DNA of 56,356 bases. It comes from Thermoproteota archaeon (GTDB lineage: Archaea > Thermoproteota > EX4484-205 > JAAOZP01). The position numbers and the translations under genes are program-made. The notes beneath the pieces are model-generated. The model saw nothing but the letters and a program-made list of their open reading frames with translations. It was not told where the DNA came from and searched no databases. Shown piece by piece: positions 37,533 to 45,327 of this stretch. The DNA is taken from NCBI GenBank assembly GCA_038848185.1, contig JAWCNV010000013.1, forward strand, positions 1 to 56,356, given 5' to 3'. Each line of letters opens with the position of its first letter. The first letter of the stretch is position 1.

Positions 37533-37652
37533 CTCAAAGCTAAAAGAGTTGCATACTCATAAACCTTCGCTTAAAGCTATATTTAATCCTCTAATGTAAA
37601 TAAATGTGCAGAAAATCATATAAGTATGAGGTGCGCGACGTTTTTCATCAGA

Positions 37653-38639
37653 ATGGTTAAAAACACTCAACGAGAAGAACTTGTTAAAACCGGGATTCTC
37701 AGGATTCTTAGCGAAAGCAACGGTCCGGTCGGATCCACAACCATAACTAGGGAACTCGTTAAAAGAGGATTTTTTATAAATGAAAGGACCGTGAGAAACT
37801 ACTTGAAGTCTCTCGAGGAAAAAGGATTTGTTTCAAGCCATGGTAAAAACGGGCGGTCAATAACTGAAGCAGGCCTCCAAGACCTAGTCGGTTCCCTAAC
37901 ATACCAACGGCTAGATTTTGTTCTAACACGCTATCTTTCGCTCGCATATTCTGTTACCTTCACACCTAGATCGAGCAGAGGTAGAATTGTCGCAAACGTG
38001 ACTATTCTGAACAAAAACAGCCTAGAGAAGGCGCTCAGGGTTTTAGGCAATCTTAAAGACGCCAATCTTCTTCTTGCACCTTACCTTAAAATCATAGATG
38101 AAGAAGAGTCTTACGAGAACATTTCTGTTGATAAGGGTAAAACTGTTCTACTTACAGTATGCAACCTTACTATCGACGGCATCTTCATAAGGTCAGGAAT
38201 ACCTATAATACTGAAATATGGTGGAATACTGCAGTTTGTGAATAAGATGCCCATTCGGTTCGTTGAATTAATGTCCTATGAGGGGACTACGGTTCCTCCC
38301 CTCGAAGTATTCACCTACAGCAACATGACCTCTATAACAAGCTTTTTGAAAACAGGCTCAGGGATGATCCCTGCGAATTATAGGGAAATACCTAAAGAAG
38401 CACTGGACAAGGTTAATTCAACGCTTTCAGAGCTTTCATCAATAGGCTGGAAAACTCTTTCGATAATTGGGCTTCCAGAGGAACCCTTGCTTGGGATACC
38501 CGTCGGCACAGGAAGATGCGGAGTCACGATAGTAAGCGGGGTGACGCCTACAGCAGCCCTAAGAGAAATAGGCTTGGATGTAGAGGTTTTCGCACCTCAC
38601 TGCCTAGCCAAGATAGAGGATATGAAGCTAATGGAATAG
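37653..38639 (+). CDS. nrpR: NrpR-type nitrogen regulator (wHTH plus single NrpR regulatory domain)
   Basis: GS..I.REL..RG..INERTVRNYL..L wHTH; TVCNLTIDG..I.SGIP, RFVELMSYEGTTVPPLEVF, GSG.IPANYREIP; lies upstream of glnA. Start could also be 37626. Confidence 0.88.
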   Translation: MVKNTQREELVKTGILRILSESNGPVGSTTITRELVKRGFFINERTVRNYLKSLEEKGFVSSHGKNGRSITEAGLQDLVGSLTYQRLDFVLTRYLSLAYSVTFTPRSSRGRIVANVTILNKNSLEKALRVLGNLKDANLLLAPYLKIIDEEESYENISVDKGKTVLLTVCNLTIDGIFIRSGIPIILKYGGILQFVNKMPIRFVELMSYEGTTVPPLEVFTYSNMTSITSFLKTGSGMIPANYREIPKEALDKVNSTLSELSSIGWKTLSIIGLPEEPLLGIPVGTGRCGVTIVSGVTPTAALREIGLDVEVFAPHCLAKIEDMKLME

Positions 38640-38751
38640 ACAGGGTCACCTTAGAATTCTTTCTCCTTCCTTAACTAATGTCTAATTTTTAAGTCAAAAA
38701 TTGTTTATTTGTCTTAATTGGGCTAATATTTACTGCATAATGTTAATAAAG

Positions 38752-38759
38752 TTTATATA
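38752..38759 (+). promoter_or_regulatory. TATA box of glnA (likely leaderless transcript)
   Basis: TTTATATA ending 26 nt before ATG 38785. Confidence 0.65.
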
Positions 38760-38784
38760 TGGGTCTGTACAGCTCTATGCCGAA

Positions 38785-40248
38785 ATGTCGTCTAGGAGCG
38801 AAAGCGTTTCGAATTTGATGAAGAGGATTGCTGAAGAAGGAGTTAGGTTCATCGACTTACAGTTTACTGATGTTCCTGGCCGTTTGCAGCATGTTACAGT
38901 TCCGGTGGGAAGGTTTTCCGCTAAGTATTTTGTTGAAGGCGTTCCGAAGCTTGACGGTTCTTCAATAAGGGGTTTTGCCGAAATATTTGAATCAGACCTT
39001 GTTTTAAAACCGGATCCGTATACGTTTGCAGTCATACCTTGGGGGAGTGTTGAGAACAGGTGTGCAAGGTTTCTCTGCGATGTTTACGTGGGATATGGTG
39101 GTGGTCGGTTGTCCAAGGATCCCAGGTTTGTCGCGCAGAGGGCTGAGGAGTATGCTTTGGAGCACGGTTTCTCCTCATACTGGGGTCCTGAGGTGGAGTT
39201 CTTCGTCTTCAAGAAGGCTACGTGGGATGTTTTAAATCCTTATAGGGGGCAGTCCTACTTTATTGAATCGCCTGAGGCAGCTTGGTCTTCCGGCGACGGG
39301 TATCCGATCAGGTTTAAGGAGGGATATTTCCCAGCTCCTCCACATGATAGTCTGATGGAGTATCGTTCAACCGTTGTGAGGCTTATGGAGGATTACTTTG
39401 GAACAGCCTGTGAGGCGCATCACCATGAGGTTGCTACCGCTGGGCAAGGAGAGATAGACATGGTTAGAGATAGGCTGGTTAAGATGGCTGACAACGTTAT
39501 GACTTTGAAGTATGTTGTTAAGAACGTTGCTTTCCAGCAAGGTATGGTTGCAACGATGATGCCTAAGCCGATTTTCGGGGATAATGCGAGCGGGATGCAT
39601 GTTCACGTCAGCCTCTGGGGCGACCCGCCTTCAACCAAGGTTGAGGAGGAACAGCTTGTAAACATGTTTTACGATGCTGAGGATAAGTATGCTGAGCTGA
39701 GCCAGCTTGGAAGATACTTCGTTGGAGGCATGCTTGAGCACAGCAGGGCTCTTACGGCGATAACCAACCCTACGACGAACTCGTATAGGAGGCTTGTCCC
39801 AGGTTATGAGGCTCCTGTCTTCATAGCTTGGAGCAAGGCTAATAGGTCTGCAAACGTCAGGATACCGGTCTATGAGAAGGGTGCTGAAAACGCTGCTAGG
39901 AAGAGGGTAGAATTTAGAACTCCAGACCCATCATGCAACCCTTACCTATGCTTCGCTGCAATAATGAGTGCGGGGCTTGACGGGATAAGGAGGAAGATTG
40001 ATCCGGGTGATCCTGTAGACGAGAATATTTACCATCTTACTCCTGAAAGGAGAAAACAACTAGGGGTAAAGGAGCTGCCTGGAAGCCTTAAAGAGGCGGT
40101 TGAATGTCTTAAGAGCGATAAGGAGTTTCTGAAACCGATTTTCTCGGATGAGCTGATAGAAACGATAATCGAAAACGATTTACGTGACCATGTTCAAGTA
40201 TCTGCAAGAACCCACCCATATGAATTTTACCTTTACTTCGACATATAA
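38785..40248 (+). CDS. glnA: Type I glutamine synthetase (GSI-beta-like insertion)
   Basis: LDGSSIRGF, GPEVEFF, HHHEVA, MPKP..GDNASGMHVH, NSYRRLVPGYEAP, NRSA.VRIP, RVEFR.PDP; start reset to ATG 38785. Confidence 0.97.
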   Translation: MSSRSESVSNLMKRIAEEGVRFIDLQFTDVPGRLQHVTVPVGRFSAKYFVEGVPKLDGSSIRGFAEIFESDLVLKPDPYTFAVIPWGSVENRCARFLCDVYVGYGGGRLSKDPRFVAQRAEEYALEHGFSSYWGPEVEFFVFKKATWDVLNPYRGQSYFIESPEAAWSSGDGYPIRFKEGYFPAPPHDSLMEYRSTVVRLMEDYFGTACEAHHHEVATAGQGEIDMVRDRLVKMADNVMTLKYVVKNVAFQQGMVATMMPKPIFGDNASGMHVHVSLWGDPPSTKVEEEQLVNMFYDAEDKYAELSQLGRYFVGGMLEHSRALTAITNPTTNSYRRLVPGYEAPVFIAWSKANRSANVRIPVYEKGAENAARKRVEFRTPDPSCNPYLCFAAIMSAGLDGIRRKIDPGDPVDENIYHLTPERRKQLGVKELPGSLKEAVECLKSDKEFLKPIFSDELIETIIENDLRDHVQVSARTHPYEFYLYFDI

Positions 40249-40273: not shown

Positions 40274-40828
40274 ATGACTGAACCAGTAAGGATTACTTGT
40301 GCACTTGACGAAGAAACCGCAAAGCTGTTAGATATAATGAAGGATGAGCTTAAACTTTCTAGAAGCGAACTTATTAGGAGGGCAATCAAGTTTCTTAACG
40401 AAAATAAGGGCTTTATGCAAAACGATATGAAACATAGGCTTGAAATCATGTTAGACATGCTTTTTAGTGAGGAACATGTTATTCTAGATATTGACCATTG
40501 GCTTCTTTTCCTTAAACTGATTGATTCTCTTCCTGATAAAGAAGTCTTCTGGAAAGAACATGAGGGAATTGCAAAATCTCATGCAGACCAGTTTTTAAAC
40601 AAAATGTACTCGGCTGAAAATGTTTTTAAGCGTCTAGAAGCATGTAACCTTCTGAAAGTGACTAAACTTTCTAATACAGATTTCACTCTTATCCTTCGAT
40701 CAGAAGCCTCTAAAGAGTTTATTAAAAGATTTATCCAAAGCCTATTGAGCCATATGGAATATAATGTGAGCATTCAAGAAGACCTGACGAAACTGCGTGT
40801 GAACATAATAAAGCTCAGCAAACTATGA
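40274..40828 (+). CDS. Ribbon-helix-helix (CopG-like) regulator with C-terminal domain
   Basis: VRITCALDEE...SRSELIRRAI RHH motif, followed by EEHVILDIDHW segment. Confidence 0.8.
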   Translation: MTEPVRITCALDEETAKLLDIMKDELKLSRSELIRRAIKFLNENKGFMQNDMKHRLEIMLDMLFSEEHVILDIDHWLLFLKLIDSLPDKEVFWKEHEGIAKSHADQFLNKMYSAENVFKRLEACNLLKVTKLSNTDFTLILRSEASKEFIKRFIQSLLSHMEYNVSIQEDLTKLRVNIIKLSKL

Positions 40829-40932
40829 TCAAGAGATATAATTCGCTTTTAATATTTTTTCACAATTTTTATTAAAGTATCTCAAATAGATTTAAAAATA
40901 TATTATATTGGGGGCTATCGGTGAAATGAAAG

Positions 40933-41712
40933 ATGCCGAAACTGAAAAAAACTAGGTCACAAGAATTAGAACAAACCGAATTAATAAGTAAAATAAAATG
41001 GATTGATCTCGGTATCGAAGGTCTGACTAACTTTATACCAGGTCTGCCTAGTGGTGACGCTATATTGGTGAGAGGAGAACCCGGTACTGGAAAGACAATC
41101 CTCTGTCTTCAATTCTTACATAAAGGCGCCGAGAAAGGCGAGAAATGCATATACATAACCACGGAAGAAACTCCAGAAACAATTTTGAGAACAGGTAACG
41201 AACTCTTCCCGGACTTCCAAGCTTTAGTAGAAGAAAAACAAATCGTTGTAGTGAACTTATCTATTAGTGCAAGCTATGCAAGCGAATACTCCCTAATTAG
41301 TAAAGAAGAGGCTGTAGAGATACTTATTAGGGGGCTTAATACCCAACCAAATGCAAGCAGGATTGTAGTGGACTCTCTCTCATCACTTGAGCGAAGACTA
41401 GCAGACCCTACTGAATTCAGAGAGATTTTCATGAAGCTCCTTTTAGAAGTTAAGAAAAGAGGAGCCACAACAATATTAACAGCTGAAGGCATACCAGCAA
41501 ATCCGGATATTACAGAATATCTTGTTGACCATTTAATATATCTTGATTATCATAAACATGATGTCGTTTGGACAAGAGTGTTCGTTTTAAGAAAATCTAG
41601 AAGTGTGCCGTTAAAGCCACAAATATTAAAATTGAACATAGAGAAAGGAGGCTTGTCTGTAGAAGAAATTCCGATTTCGTTAAAACCGGTGTGGTTCGCA
41701 AGTAAGCTGTAG
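40933..41712 (+). CDS. Single-domain KaiC/RAD55-family ATPase
   Basis: GIEGL...GLP.G, Walker A GEPGTGKT, YITTEE, Walker B IVVDS, EYLVD, KSR finger. Confidence 0.9.
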   Translation: MPKLKKTRSQELEQTELISKIKWIDLGIEGLTNFIPGLPSGDAILVRGEPGTGKTILCLQFLHKGAEKGEKCIYITTEETPETILRTGNELFPDFQALVEEKQIVVVNLSISASYASEYSLISKEEAVEILIRGLNTQPNASRIVVDSLSSLERRLADPTEFREIFMKLLLEVKKRGATTILTAEGIPANPDITEYLVDHLIYLDYHKHDVVWTRVFVLRKSRSVPLKPQILKLNIEKGGLSVEEIPISLKPVWFASKL

Positions 41713-41722
41713 GTGATGTAGA

Positions 41723-43045
41723 ATGTCGGAAAATCCTGAGGAAATTTTTGCAGCAATACAGCAGGTTTTCATCGTAGGATGGGCACCAGTTGCCATACTT
41801 ATTATGGCTACTGCGGGCTTTGCTCTCTTATATGCGGGAATGGTACGTAAGAAAAATGTCGCCCATACTGTAATAATGTTAAATGTTGGCTGGACTCTTG
41901 CATTCATAATGTATTACTTAATTGGATTTCCTATTTCATACTACACTGATTCGCCATTTTTATCATTCCCAAAGTACCTGCCTACAATAGCAAACCCATT
42001 GCCTGCAACATTATCTGACAGCGGAGCCTACGGAATACCGCCAAGCCCATCAGGATATGGAGATTTAGCTTTATGGTTTAAAATGGCAATGTTTACAATA
42101 ACCACTATAGCGATAGTACCGGGAGCCATAGCTGAGCGGGATAAGCTGTGGGGGTGGATAATTGCAGCGGGAGCCATAGCCACGTTTCTGTATCCTGTTG
42201 TTGAGCATTGGGTATGGGGAGGAGGATGGTTAGCTCAGATGGGTTTCATCGATTACGCAGGTTCAACGGTTGTACATCTAACAGGAGGCATGTTTGCATT
42301 GGCAGGGGCTCTTGTAATAGGTCCAAGAATAGGAAAGTTTGTCGGTAAAAGTAAAGAAGCAAGGTCCTTCTTTGGACATAGTTTACCATTATCTGTAATT
42401 GGCGCATGGCTACTTGTCTTCGGATGGTTTGGCTTTAACGTAGGATCGAGCATAGCGAATACGGCTCAAACAATAAATGTCGAGTTAGCATGGGTTGGAG
42501 TTACAACGGCTATGGCTATGGCTGGAGGTCTTTTTGGCGCAGCACTGACTTCGAGAGGACACGCATTAACATCGATGGCTGGTCTACTCGCAGGCGCTGT
42601 TGCTATATGTTCAGGCACAGTGGTAATGAATCCAATATTCGCATTCATAACAGGCACCATCGCCGGAATACTCACGACATTTGTTCAAGGGTTGCTCGAA
42701 CACAAATTACATGTAGATGATGCTTGTGTATGTGTTTCGGTGCATGCAGCCTGTGGATTTTGGGGAGCAATTGCAACAGGCCTATTCAGCCTTAATATTC
42801 TCGGTGCGCATCCTTTGTATGGTGTGAATACTTTAGGCGAATGGTTAAACACCATAAGTGTGCAGTTTATTGGCGCATCGGTGATAGCAGTATGGTCAGG
42901 ATTAACGGGATACTTACTCTTCTACCTTATAAATAGGGCGGGGTTACTACGTGCAAAAAGAGATGCAGAACTATTTGGCTTAGACATTGCAGACCATAAA
43001 GCATACGCCTATCCGGAAGACGAGTTAGAAAAAGAGTTCCCGTAG
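41723..43045 (+). CDS. amtB: Ammonium transporter
   Basis: GAIAER, HWVWGGGWL, DYAGSTVVH, GPRIGKF, GWFGFN, DD...VH, ELFGLD..DH..AY. Confidence 0.97.
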   Translation: MSENPEEIFAAIQQVFIVGWAPVAILIMATAGFALLYAGMVRKKNVAHTVIMLNVGWTLAFIMYYLIGFPISYYTDSPFLSFPKYLPTIANPLPATLSDSGAYGIPPSPSGYGDLALWFKMAMFTITTIAIVPGAIAERDKLWGWIIAAGAIATFLYPVVEHWVWGGGWLAQMGFIDYAGSTVVHLTGGMFALAGALVIGPRIGKFVGKSKEARSFFGHSLPLSVIGAWLLVFGWFGFNVGSSIANTAQTINVELAWVGVTTAMAMAGGLFGAALTSRGHALTSMAGLLAGAVAICSGTVVMNPIFAFITGTIAGILTTFVQGLLEHKLHVDDACVCVSVHAACGFWGAIATGLFSLNILGAHPLYGVNTLGEWLNTISVQFIGASVIAVWSGLTGYLLFYLINRAGLLRAKRDAELFGLDIADHKAYAYPEDELEKEFP

Positions 43046-43054
43046 GTGATAAGT

Positions 43055-43210
43055 ATGAACCAAACTCAAGAAATAGGCAATATAAATGAAGCATGTACAG
43101 AAAAAGAGGAACTTAAGGCGAAAATAGAGAGGCTTGAAAAAAGAGTGGAGAGGCTTGAAAAAGAACTTCAAATGATAAAATCAAGAATTGTAGGAAGAAA
43201 ATGGGTGTAA
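43055..43210 (+). CDS. Small coiled-coil protein (51 aa, not in the ORF track)
   Basis: MNQTQEIGNINEACTEKEELKAKIERLEKRVERLEKELQMIKSRIVGRKWV; GGTGA SD overlapping the amt stop; fills the amt-PII gap. Confidence 0.75.
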   Translation: MNQTQEIGNINEACTEKEELKAKIERLEKRVERLEKELQMIKSRIVGRKWV

Positions 43211-43228
43211 ACCTGGAGGAGAGAAGAA

Positions 43229-43567
43229 TTGAAGAAAATAGAGGCAATAATTAGGCCCGATAAGTTCTTTTACGTGAAGGAGGCACTTTCTAAAGCAGGA
43301 TATACGAGTCTAACTGTTTACGATGTTAAGGGTCGTGGAAGACAAAGTGGCATAATACAAACAATTAGTGGGAAAACGATCAGGGCTGATCTTCTGCCAA
43401 AGGTTAAGATTGAAATAATTGTTGGTGATGAAGAGGTTGAGAGAGTGGTCGAAATCATTTTAAATACTACAAAAACAGGAGCTATTGGTGATGGTAAAAT
43501 CTTTGTGTCTAGCATCGATGATGCAATCAGAATAAGAACAGGTGAAAGAGGAAATCAGGGCTTATAA
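43229..43567 (+). CDS. glnK: PII nitrogen regulatory protein
   Basis: MKKIEAIIRP, GRGRQ, LLPKVKIEI, TGAIGDGKIFV, RIRTGERG; 112 aa; GGAGG SD with TTG start. Confidence 0.96.
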   Translation: MKKIEAIIRPDKFFYVKEALSKAGYTSLTVYDVKGRGRQSGIIQTISGKTIRADLLPKVKIEIIVGDEEVERVVEIILNTTKTGAIGDGKIFVSSIDDAIRIRTGERGNQGL

Positions 43568-43644: not shown

Positions 43645-45327
43645 TTGTGCAAAATTAAGATTGCTATGGCTCAGGTAAATTGTACAGTTGGAGATATTGA
43701 AGGAAATATTGGGAAAATAAGAGAATATATGAAAATGGTCAAAGGATGTGGGGCAGACCTTGTAGCGTTTCCAGAGCTAACTGTAACCGGGTATCCTCCT
43801 CAAGACTTGCTGCTTGAAAAAGCCTTCGTAAAAAGCCAAAGGAAAATGCTGTTTAAAACTATTAGAGAAAACAGCGTTTCAATAGCTGGGGTGGTTGGGT
43901 TTGTCGATTATAAGAGGGGGAGCTTGTATAATGCTGCTGCTGTTTTCAATGGGAGTAGGATTGTTAAAATAGTTTACAAAACACTCTTACCAACATATGA
44001 TGTGTTTGATGAAGCAAGGTATTTCAAGCCAGCACTGGTGAACGAGATAAAACCAGTGTTAATAGACTTGAACACGGTTAAATTTAAACTCGGCGTTGAG
44101 ATATGTGAAGACCTATGGGATAAAAAGTATGATGTGAAAGTAACTGATTTACTGGCGAATCGGGGAGCGCAGTTGATAATTAATATTTCGGCCTCTCCAT
44201 TCTACGCTGGGAAAAGATTCGAGAGATTAAAATTGTTAAGGGAGAAGTCTAGAAAGAACAGGATTCCGATGTTTTACGTTAATCTGGTTGGAGGGCAGGA
44301 TGAACTGGTTTTCGACGGGCAGAGCATGGCGGTTGACAGTTCAGGTAATCCGATAGCTATTGGTAAACAATTTGAAGAAGATTTGATAATTGCTGACATC
44401 GATCTTAAAACCGGAAGAGGTAGGAAGATCAAGCCTCCGCCATACCATAAGGAACAGGAAATGTTTAACGCTATAGTCCTCGGAATACGTGACTATTTCA
44501 GGAAAACAGGCTTCAAAAAGGCGGTTGTAGGAATGAGCGGTGGAATAGACTCGTCTTTAACAACATGCATAGCAGTGGAGGCTTTGGGAAGAGAAAACGT
44601 TATTGGCGTCTACATGCCTTCCAAATATTCTAGCCAGCATAGTAAAGAAGATGCTCAAAAAGTGGCTGAAAACCTTGGAATATGCTTTGTGGAAATCCCT
44701 ATTCAAGAAATAGTTGAAGCCTATCGAAAGGTCTTGGAGAAACCCTTGGAAAAAATAAGGCGTCGCTTCGGCTTAACGAAGGAAAGGGACGATCCCGTTG
44801 CCGATGAAAACATACAGCCCAGGATAAGGGGGAACATTCTGATGGACATATCGAATAGGTTTAAAGACTTGAAAATACTCGTTGTGAATACTGGTAATAA
44901 GACTGAACTCGCACTCGGCTACTGTACTCTATACGGGGACATGGCTGGCGGAATTGGTACCCTTGGCGATGTGAGCAAGCTTGAGGTTTACAATTTAGCG
45001 AGATATTTCAATGAAAAAGCTGGAAGAGAGATTATTCCCAGAAGAGTTTTTGAGAAGAAGCCTTCGCCAGAATTGAAGGAAGGACAGTATGATCCTTTCG
45101 ACTTCGATATTGTCAGCCCATTGGTAGACAAAATAGTGGAAGAGCGTCGGGGCAAACAGGAGTTGATAAAGGCAGGTTATCCCGAGGAGGTTGTGGAAGA
45201 CATTTACAGAAGGATTAGAAACGCAGAATATAAGAGATGGCAAGCCTCTCCTTGCATAAAAATTACGCCTAAAGCATTTGGTATCGGATGGAAGATGCCA
45301 ATAGTTAACATGTGGAAAGGACGATAG
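43645..45327 (+). CDS. nadE: Glutamine-dependent NAD+ synthetase (nitrilase plus synthetase domains)
   Basis: FPEL..TGYPP.DL, K.LLPTYDVFDE.RYF, ICEDLW, SGGIDS, ENIQPRIRG, TGNKTE, GY.TLYGD, EYKR.Q. Confidence 0.96.
   Translation: MCKIKIAMAQVNCTVGDIEGNIGKIREYMKMVKGCGADLVAFPELTVTGYPPQDLLLEKAFVKSQRKMLFKTIRENSVSIAGVVGFVDYKRGSLYNAAAVFNGSRIVKIVYKTLLPTYDVFDEARYFKPALVNEIKPVLIDLNTVKFKLGVEICEDLWDKKYDVKVTDLLANRGAQLIINISASPFYAGKRFERLKLLREKSRKNRIPMFYVNLVGGQDELVFDGQSMAVDSSGNPIAIGKQFEEDLIIADIDLKTGRGRKIKPPPYHKEQEMFNAIVLGIRDYFRKTGFKKAVVGMSGGIDSSLTTCIAVEALGRENVIGVYMPSKYSSQHSKEDAQKVAENLGICFVEIPIQEIVEAYRKVLEKPLEKIRRRFGLTKERDDPVADENIQPRIRGNILMDISNRFKDLKILVVNTGNKTELALGYCTLYGDMAGGIGTLGDVSKLEVYNLARYFNEKAGREIIPRRVFEKKPSPELKEGQYDPFDFDIVSPLVDKIVEERRGKQELIKAGYPEEVVEDIYRRIRNAEYKRWQASPCIKITPKAFGIGWKMPIVNMWKGR

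Follow-up and report, generated by a model that had tools for sequence, protein, structure and literature searches.

A KaiC-like ATPase gene linked to a distinct clade of ammonium transporters in archaea and bacteria

The contig JAWCNV010000013.1 of a Thermoproteota archaeon (assembly GCA_038848185.1), all 56,356 nucleotides of which were analysed and are called the window here, carries a gene for a single-domain KaiC-like ATPase (kaiC) directly ahead of a gene for an ammonium transporter (amt), with the gene of a ribbon-helix-helix (RHH) protein upstream and a small open reading frame (ORF) and a PII gene (glnK) downstream. In all of the loci at which a close relative of this ATPase was found (43/43), an Amt of one clade is encoded directly downstream, and the evidence shows that kaiC and amt are a two-gene functional unit. 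This linkage suggests that ammonium uptake has a partner or switch, not described before, which is able to do without the usual PII protein. The textbook case of Amt control is built on PII, and on phosphorylation in eukaryotes, and in our literature search, judged by titles and the beginnings of abstracts, no description of a pairing of a KaiC-like ATPase with an Amt was found.

Linkage and co-divergence of kaiC and amt

Close relatives of the window's KaiC-like protein run to hundreds, and the top 120 of them are 70-100% identical to it (89% for the next below the window's own entry); the minority of these 120 that are named by source come from Thermoproteota/Bathyarchaeota, Nitrososphaerota, Anaerolineae, Promethearchaeota and Hermodarchaeota. 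Scanning from the KaiC side, with one genome per species, gave 39 loci, of which 37 hold a KaiC of at least 65% identity, and at 37/37 of these an Amt (62-100% identity) is encoded directly downstream on the same strand; the other two (L060, L061) hold distant KaiC-likes only (33-34%), without an Amt. Among the 37, one locus (L023) is essentially the window itself, one (L024) is a contig of a second genome of the same genus (G011) and one (L056) has an Amt that runs off its contig. At L058 KaiC and Amt are each split over two frames, and at L026 the C-terminus of the Amt lies in a second frame, through decay or assembly error.

A metagenome scan from the Amt side kept 80 loci, comprising 4 close Amts (66-73% identity) and 76 ordinary Amts at 30-38%. 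Both of the close Amts with upstream DNA are preceded by KaiC (a 96-aa C-terminal piece at 89% identity in L062, full length in L063), the remaining two beginning at a contig edge, and an adjacent KaiC was seen at 0/76 of the ordinary Amt loci, with a KaiC-like stretch of 30% identity lying 2 kb off on the opposite strand at one of them (L083). At 45/80 of these metagenome loci the Amt has a PII gene as a neighbour. Among 401 sampled genomes of the phylum, KaiC (E <=1e-60) was present in 8, each with a neighbouring Amt; two of these contigs had already been counted (L028, L040) and four were new, so that the 43 loci are made up of 37 from the KaiC scan, 2 from the Amt-side metagenome scan and 4 from the phylum sample. 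A first-pass annotation of the window had joined kaiC and amt in an expanded ammonium-uptake control system, and the synteny of the two genes was strongly borne out by this comparison of KaiC-bearing and control loci.

The records of the 43 loci are labelled as Bathyarchaeia, Asgard archaea, Chloroflexota and, once, as a Clostridiaceae bacterium. Within the window's own genus KaiC was found in 1/16 other genomes (G011), also the sole one with an Amt, and neither KaiC nor Amt was found in the other 15 (70-94% complete). The flanking genes vary by lineage, with GlnA, PucR and GlnE/GlnD-like genes in Chloroflexota, NadE in Asgard archaea and RNase P genes in the genus g82. The longer order kaiC-amt-small ORF-glnK, also put forward at first, did not hold up as a fixed five-gene unit together with the RHH gene: the RHH family is more widespread, the small ORF is confined to Bathyarchaeia and PII is optional. 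The obligate core of the module is kaiC-amt, the only constant pair. At three Chloroflexota/Anaerolineae loci (L043, L045, L053) glnA-kaiC-amt is preceded by the gene of a PucR-type regulator and by that of a large GlnE/GlnD-like nucleotidyltransferase, neighbours which imply that the bacterial hosts place the pair in a different nitrogen-control set.

Both proteins of the pair are highly conserved, with a mean column identity of 78% for KaiC and 79% for Amt (34 sequences each), and their neighbours are less alike between lineages (GlnA 38-47%, NadE 36-37% at Asgard loci, RHH 38-51%, PII 51-71%). Separate trees of KaiC and Amt (quick trees, LG+G4) recover the same Bathyarchaeia, Chloroflexota/Anaerolineae and Asgard groups. 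In the window, the GC content at third codon positions (GC3) is 0.27-0.36 in the five genes from RHH to PII, compared with 0.42-0.49 in the surrounding nrpR, glnA and nadE, a contrast in composition that fits a lateral insertion of the low-GC3 block between glnA and nadE. Taken together, the conservation, the matching trees, the patchy presence in the genus and the GC3 contrast indicate that the kaiC-amt cassette has been transferred a few times from one phylum or domain to another and, since then, preserved whole under strong constraint.

The ATPase, the Amt clade and the PII protein

Profile score (PF06745) and motifs both place the ATPase in the KaiC/RecA superfamily. The Walker A motif (G48-T55), the acidic pair (E78, E79) and Walker B (D147), to which we assign the roles presumed from the KaiC literature, are invariant in 34 orthologues, in agreement with the intact Walker A/B and EE motifs that had been noted at first. 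In the same 34 sequences 118/259 positions are invariant, including nearly all of the last 16 residues. The best solved relative is a KaiC CI domain (8zn5, E 1e-35), and others are the archaeal single-domain proteins 2zts (E 5.7e-21), 2w0m and 2dr3. In an AlphaFold model of the monomer (mean predicted local distance difference test score, pLDDT, 72.6) the core is confident and residues 207-229 and 250-259 fall below 50; the invariant C-terminal tail and residues 207-229, predicted to be disordered, look in this model like candidate interface segments.

The protein scores under every cut-off of the curated NCBIfam subfamilies. It shares with the archaeal single-domain KaiC-likes (PH0186 2zts, PH0284 2dr3, SSO2452 2w0m, ArlH/FlaH) one RecA-like domain of ~250 aa with Walker A/B and the acidic pair, but it lies far under the cut-offs of the named subfamilies (KaiC_arch_3, 101 vs 249 bits), has an invariant C-terminal tail of its own and is tied to Amt rather than to the archaellum or another known partner. 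An identity as the archaellum ATPase ArlH/FlaH was rejected (NF052589, 47.8 bits vs a cut-off of 215). The cyanobacterial circadian KaiC belongs to the same Pfam family and supplies, through its CI domain, the best solved match, but consists of two domains (~500 aa) rather than one (259 aa); an identity as circadian, double-domain KaiC was likewise rejected, with 66 bits vs 546 for circ_KaiC (TIGR02655) and no KaiB (PF07689) found in the window genome, a 1.79-Mb assembly that is 93.5% complete. This genome holds one Amt, one PII and three KaiC-like genes, the other two KaiC-likes being only 27-31% identical to the one linked to Amt.

The Amt belongs to the Amt/Mep/Rh transporters (PF00909) by score and by pore residues. 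Its H185, H341, F124, F238, W165, S242 and D177, all invariant, align to H168, H318, F107, F215, W148, S219 and D160 of Escherichia coli AmtB, and from the AmtB literature we take these to be the twin histidines, the phenylalanine gate, the tryptophan/serine vestibule and the aspartate. The C-terminal region is also kept. With 329.6 bits the protein misses the cut-off of the amt subfamily TIGR00836 (343.3), and in a tree of 144 Amts the 42 KaiC-linked sequences are one side of a branch that separates them from 102 others (support 100) on a stem of 1.17 changes per site, the largest within-clade distance to the window's Amt being 0.94. This group of 42 was picked at >=60% identity to the query and coincides exactly with KaiC linkage.

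Invariant changes specific to the clade number 72 and are spread over the helices and both faces. They include K120/M121 (window 42080-42085), where the others have Phe in 99/102 and Gln in 86/102, which covers the position of the S1 site, the outer binding site, aligned to E. coli F103; A292 and C296 (region of window 42596-42610), where the others have Leu in 102/102 and Thr in 101/102; a rebuilt cytoplasmic loop at 277-280; and K426 in the C-terminal region. Judged by their positions, K120/M121, A292 and C296 may alter substrate affinity or selectivity.

In a profile search the solved Amts ranked 6eu6 (195.8 bits), 8qj3 (Sd-Amt1, 185.2), E. coli AmtB (169.9) and Af-Amt1 (166.6), the first of which we take to be the Kuenenia sensor Ks-Amt5; a search of the PDB with the 120-aa N-terminal piece of the Amt returned 0 matches. 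Sd-Amt1 is an ammonium receptor with N1/N2 ligands Glu-29, Asn-45, Asp-48 and Thr-104, and the assimilatory transporter Af-Amt1 has Tyr-27 at the position that matches Y37 here (PMC11152129). The four ligands align to Y37, L53, G56 and A130 of our Amt (HMMER alignment, possibly off by one in transmembrane helix 2), and on this alignment the receptor site is not kept. Likeness to the sensor Amts with fused modules (Sd-Amt1, 8qj3, PMC11152129; Ks-Amt5) thus extends to their being the best solved profile matches and to an Amt trimer that talks to a cytoplasmic module, but here that module has a gene to itself and belongs to a different family, and the N1/N2 ligands of the receptors are not retained. 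The Amt is the sole one both in the window genome and in a closed genome of the genus g82 (G167), for which reason a working transporter is expected, and this status in the two genomes and the absent receptor site together make a working transporter more likely than a pure sensor.

PII is an optional part of the module. At 16 loci the gene after amt, or after the small ORF, encodes a full-length PII (10/21 of those labelled Bathyarchaeia, 3/3 Promethearchaeota, 1/9 Chloroflexota/Anaerolineae, the Clostridiaceae locus and one unclassified archaeon), and remnants or cut copies were found at 3 further loci. The window protein is a PF00543 member without the Arg47 of the GlnK-type plug, its T-loop having Ser for Arg47 and Ile for Tyr51. 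At position 47 the module PIIs have S, N or D (16/16) and the other Amt-linked PIIs have Arg (45/45), and position 46 is aliphatic in the module PIIs compared with Tyr, Trp or Phe in 42/45 of the others. In E. coli the tip of the GlnK T-loop inserts into the AmtB exit, where Arg47 blocks conduction, and the R47A variant of GlnK still associates with AmtB (PMC4274968). In this light the module PII has lost the pore plug, but may still dock.

In the genus g82, the Amt is preceded by a pair of KaiC paralogues in all four genomes sampled (G167, G323, G293, G179; loci L152-L155); the two copies of any one genome are 69-75% identical and have motifs intact in both, at loci with no RHH gene and no nitrogen genes nearby; a PII gene was not found anywhere in these four genomes (94-97% complete; G167 closed, 2.15 Mb). 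In G293 an alpha-acetolactate decarboxylase gene lies between the two kaiC copies. The module thus resembles the canonical amtB-glnK arrangement (E. coli AmtB-GlnK, PDB 2nuu, 2ns1) in that, in a setting of nitrogen assimilation, an Amt gene is accompanied by that of a small cytoplasmic regulator, and often by a PII of the same family fold after the Amt. It departs from that arrangement in that the constant partner is a KaiC-like ATPase, the PII, where present, lacks Arg47 and Tyr51, four genomes are without PII and the Amt falls into a separate long-stemmed clade. The early suggestion that an ATPase joins or replaces PII in gating gains support from the Arg47-less PIIs and the PII-free genomes with doubled KaiC, though without the fixed gene set in which it had been framed.

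Possible roles of the ATPase

We see about an even chance that the KaiC-like ATPase is a dedicated partner of the Amt whose ring switches transport, the other genes being lineage add-ons. Here the ATPase would serve this special Amt clade from the cytoplasm and would most likely assemble as a RecA-type ring beneath the Amt trimer, switching transport on and off by its nucleotide or autophosphorylation state and so doing the job of the PII T-loop plug in ordinary amtB-glnK systems. The Arg47-less PII could inform the complex of ATP/ADP/2-oxoglutarate status while leaving the pore unplugged, the micro-protein encoded by the small ORF would be a lineage-specific adaptor in Bathyarchaeia, and the RHH protein, with a putative ligand-binding domain, would control transcription via a palindrome before kaiC. 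If this is true, ammonium uptake would be wired to the energy state of the cell by a different, ATP-using partner tied to a whole Amt clade, one that occurs in Bathyarchaeia, Asgard archaea and Anaerolineae and some hosts of which carry the partner without any PII, and the archaeal KaiC-like ATPases, a large family most of which is uncharacterised, would gain a concrete membrane target. The pair is small (259 aa and 440 aa) and very conserved, and therefore suits heterologous expression, transport assays and cryo-EM.

Several points weigh against a transport-switching ring. We infer that the two proteins bind, the stoichiometry of the ring, which way control runs and what the micro-protein and the RHH protein do, and strict linkage would be equally expected of an assembly factor or an energising subunit. 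A concentration of clade-specific Amt residues at the cytoplasmic face was sought, and the 72 positions were found spread over the whole protein. The loss of Arg47 alone leaves PII-AmtB binding possible, as with the R47A variant cited above, and PII could still dock on the Amt. The nearest solved Amts, 6eu6 and 8qj3, the latter a receptor, fit a signalling role as well. A prediction of the complex of one Amt with one KaiC, a pair far smaller than the presumed 3:6 assembly, scored 0.00, which counts neither for nor against the ring.

A bolder form of the switching model, which we hold only tentatively and as clearly less probable, is that this Amt clade works only when complexed with the RecA-type ATPase ring, ATP binding or hydrolysis gating or priming uptake. 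This would be a third, PII-independent kind of Amt control, with one paralogue in most lineages and two in g82, where an A3B3 ring could match the symmetry of the Amt trimer, and with the two-gene cassette spread between archaea and bacteria.

It is unlikely, in our estimate, that the relay runs the other way, with the Amt as an ammonium receptor or transceptor and KaiC as its separately encoded transducer, comparable to the Amt-kinase and Amt-cyclase fusions, with output to PII, RHH or others. Makarova et al. 2017 are said to have proposed KaiC-like ATPases as archaeal signalling hubs, and the rank of 6eu6 and of Sd-Amt1, a described receptor (PMC11152129), ahead of AmtB and Af-Amt1 would suit such a relay. 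However, the N1/N2 ligands of Sd-Amt1 are not kept in the Amt, where Y37 is the state of the assimilatory Af-Amt1; a pure sensor would leave organisms with a sole Amt, such as the window genome and G167, without a transporter; and no output partner shows up throughout, RHH and PII being missing at many loci.

An energising role, in which the ring would link the hydrolysis of ATP to the Amt for active or ATP-primed uptake in energy-limited anaerobes, appears improbable. The obligate linkage and the fully conserved catalytic residues would be expected of it, the host labels are those of anaerobic sediment, hot-spring and digester lineages, and K120/M121 at the S1 site hints at a changed handling of the substrate, but the pore residues are canonical, PII at many loci argues for regulation, and a RecA-type ATPase as the driver of a channel-like Amt is not known to us. 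We rate slightly lower still a role in assembly or quality control, by which KaiC would fold, trimerise, insert or turn over a divergent Amt without regulating it: strict linkage, translational coupling with kaiC translated first and the long stem of the divergent Amt clade are compatible with this, but control is the better fit to the nitrogen-regulatory genes that accompany the pair (PII, GlnA, NrpR, RHH), and KaiC-family proteins are, to our knowledge, known as switches and scaffolds and not as membrane-protein chaperones. That the genes merely travel together in a recently spread mobile block without a functional link is strongly disfavoured, since the GC3 contrast, the patchy occurrence (2/17 genus genomes, 8/401 in the phylum sample) and the 65-78% identity across two domains of life do indicate lateral transfer, but the two genes have remained together where everything around them differs, the sequences of each phylum form a separate clade in the KaiC tree and in the Amt tree, purifying selection on both proteins is strong, and no clade Amt without KaiC was seen at any locus with upstream DNA.

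Locus layout, micro-protein and RHH protein

The features of the locus, in window coordinates, are as follows.

37626-38639, + strand: nrpR, an NrpR-type nitrogen repressor (PF01995, 240.7 bits), just 5' of glnA
38701-40248, + strand: glnA ORF (family assignment by Pfam)
40274-40828, + strand: RHH (CopG-type) protein, 184 aa (Pfam RHH_1, PF01402, residues 6-40, 31.4 bits vs cut-off 20.5, E 1.6e-7)
40859-40875, no strand: TTCAYA-N5-TATKAA, an imperfect palindrome between RHH and kaiC, with AT-rich, TATA-like boxes downstream of it; candidate RHH operator
40933-41712, + strand: single-domain KaiC-like ATPase, 259 aa (PF06745, residues 26-245, 156.7 bits vs cut-off 26.6)
41710-41725, + strand: kaiC stop, amt Shine-Dalgarno and amt start with a 10-nt spacer, read from the sequence; candidate translational-coupling junction
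41723-43045, + strand: amt, 440 aa (PF00909, 310.9 bits)
43055-43210, + strand: small ORF, 51 aa from ATG (54 aa from a GTG at 43046); conserved micro-protein
43229-43567, + strand: PII (glnK), 112 aa, TTG start (PF00543, 101.3 bits vs cut-off 25)
43645-45327, + strand: glutamine-dependent NAD synthetase (nadE; family assignment by Pfam)

The kaiC stop TAG (41710-41712) abuts GGTGAT, and 10 nt past the stop comes the amt ATG; the amt stop TAG (43043-43045) abuts a second GGTGAT and the ATG of the small ORF lies 9 nt on; and GGAGG stands upstream of the TTG of glnK. Coordinates and sequence agree here with the first-pass annotation, which had placed a KaiC with intact motifs 10 nt ahead of amt and had linked kaiC to amt, and amt to the 51-aa ORF and then glnK, by overlap of stop and Shine-Dalgarno. 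A gap of 9-17 nt between kaiC and amt with a stop-adjacent GGTG-type Shine-Dalgarno is seen at most archaeal loci, whereas the gap in Chloroflexota is 24-181 nt; the arrangement is beyond chance and recurs across loci. The spacer between RHH and kaiC (104 nt, 23% G+C) contains T-runs and TATA-like boxes and a T6 run lies 3' of glnK, which together suggest that kaiC-amt-small ORF-glnK would be a single transcription unit with its own promoter. A consensus of the NrpR operator, from the Methanococcus literature, matched three sites in the window, none of them <=6 kb from the locus, and 19/100 shuffles did equally well. A scan for bacterial promoters and terminators gave about the shuffle expectation, under a model ill-suited to archaea, and a search of the whole window with Rfam gave 0 matches at the gathering threshold.

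The small ORF encodes a conserved micro-protein restricted to Bathyarchaeia-labelled and metagenome loci (19/21 and 2/4, respectively, compared with 0/16 loci of other taxa). Its 21 versions, of 38-51 aa, share invariant L27, R30, L34, E35, K42, K49 and W50, and comprise an amphipathic or coiled-coil helix and a basic-aromatic C-terminus, G-[KR]-K-W-[LV]. Methanosarcina mazei sP36, a protein of 61 aa that binds AmtB1 and GlnK1 (PMC10714827), is a precedent: both are micro-proteins of an archaeal ammonium-transport setting in organisms without GlnD, a GlnD-type domain not having been found in the window genome. The micro-protein here differs in that it also occurs at loci without a following PII and always accompanies KaiC-Amt.

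The RHH protein is a candidate transcription regulator of amt operons, as judged by its domain content and position. Invariant residues among 21 orthologues include E67, H68, D72, D74, H75, H103 and C124, and the His, Asp and Cys among them would suit a ligand site. Its C-terminal domain of ~135 aa has no Pfam match; the absence of a NikR_C match in Pfam led us to reject an identity as a NikR-like nickel regulator. In structure comparisons (RHH model pLDDT 73.9) this domain gave weak Foldseek matches to H-NOX (E 3e-3 to 2e-2, template modelling score, TM, 0.35-0.45), a VIA match to 6mx5 (Z 9.0; root-mean-square deviation 5.3 over 138 residues), and Atlas structure matches to H-NOX and AF_0136_C clusters (TM 0.59-0.75), and on these weak but repeated matches, of H-NOX, Bet3 and AF_0136_C type, rests its tentative assignment to an H-NOX/V4R-like fold.

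The RHH family occurs in 32/401 genomes of the phylum sample, four times as many as KaiC, and stands beside other Amt types without KaiC at L165, L168 and L170, and divergently at L007, L008 and L009 (genomes G032, G039, G046), so that a wider RHH-Amt regulon seems to exist in the phylum. The palindrome TTCAYA-N5-TATKAA has one match in the 56-kb window compared with 0.01 expected. It was present at 17/18 KaiC loci with a same-strand upstream RHH gene and at 0/19 without, and in the RHH-Amt spacer of 6/6 KaiC-less RHH-Amt loci (L007, L008, L009, L165, L168, L170). It also lies close to RHH at L162 and L164, and an exact match was not found at L161, L163, L166 and L169. Because the palindrome is present with RHH, including at KaiC-less loci, and absent without it, it goes with RHH and not with KaiC. 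The divergent Amts of L007-L009, with the same palindrome in the spacer they share with RHH, are 35-41% identical to the window's Amt. At several Bathyarchaeia loci (such as L025, 3075-4274) genes for an ACT-pair protein and an Lrp/AsnC regulator precede RHH, and a glutamine cyclotransferase gene follows PII.

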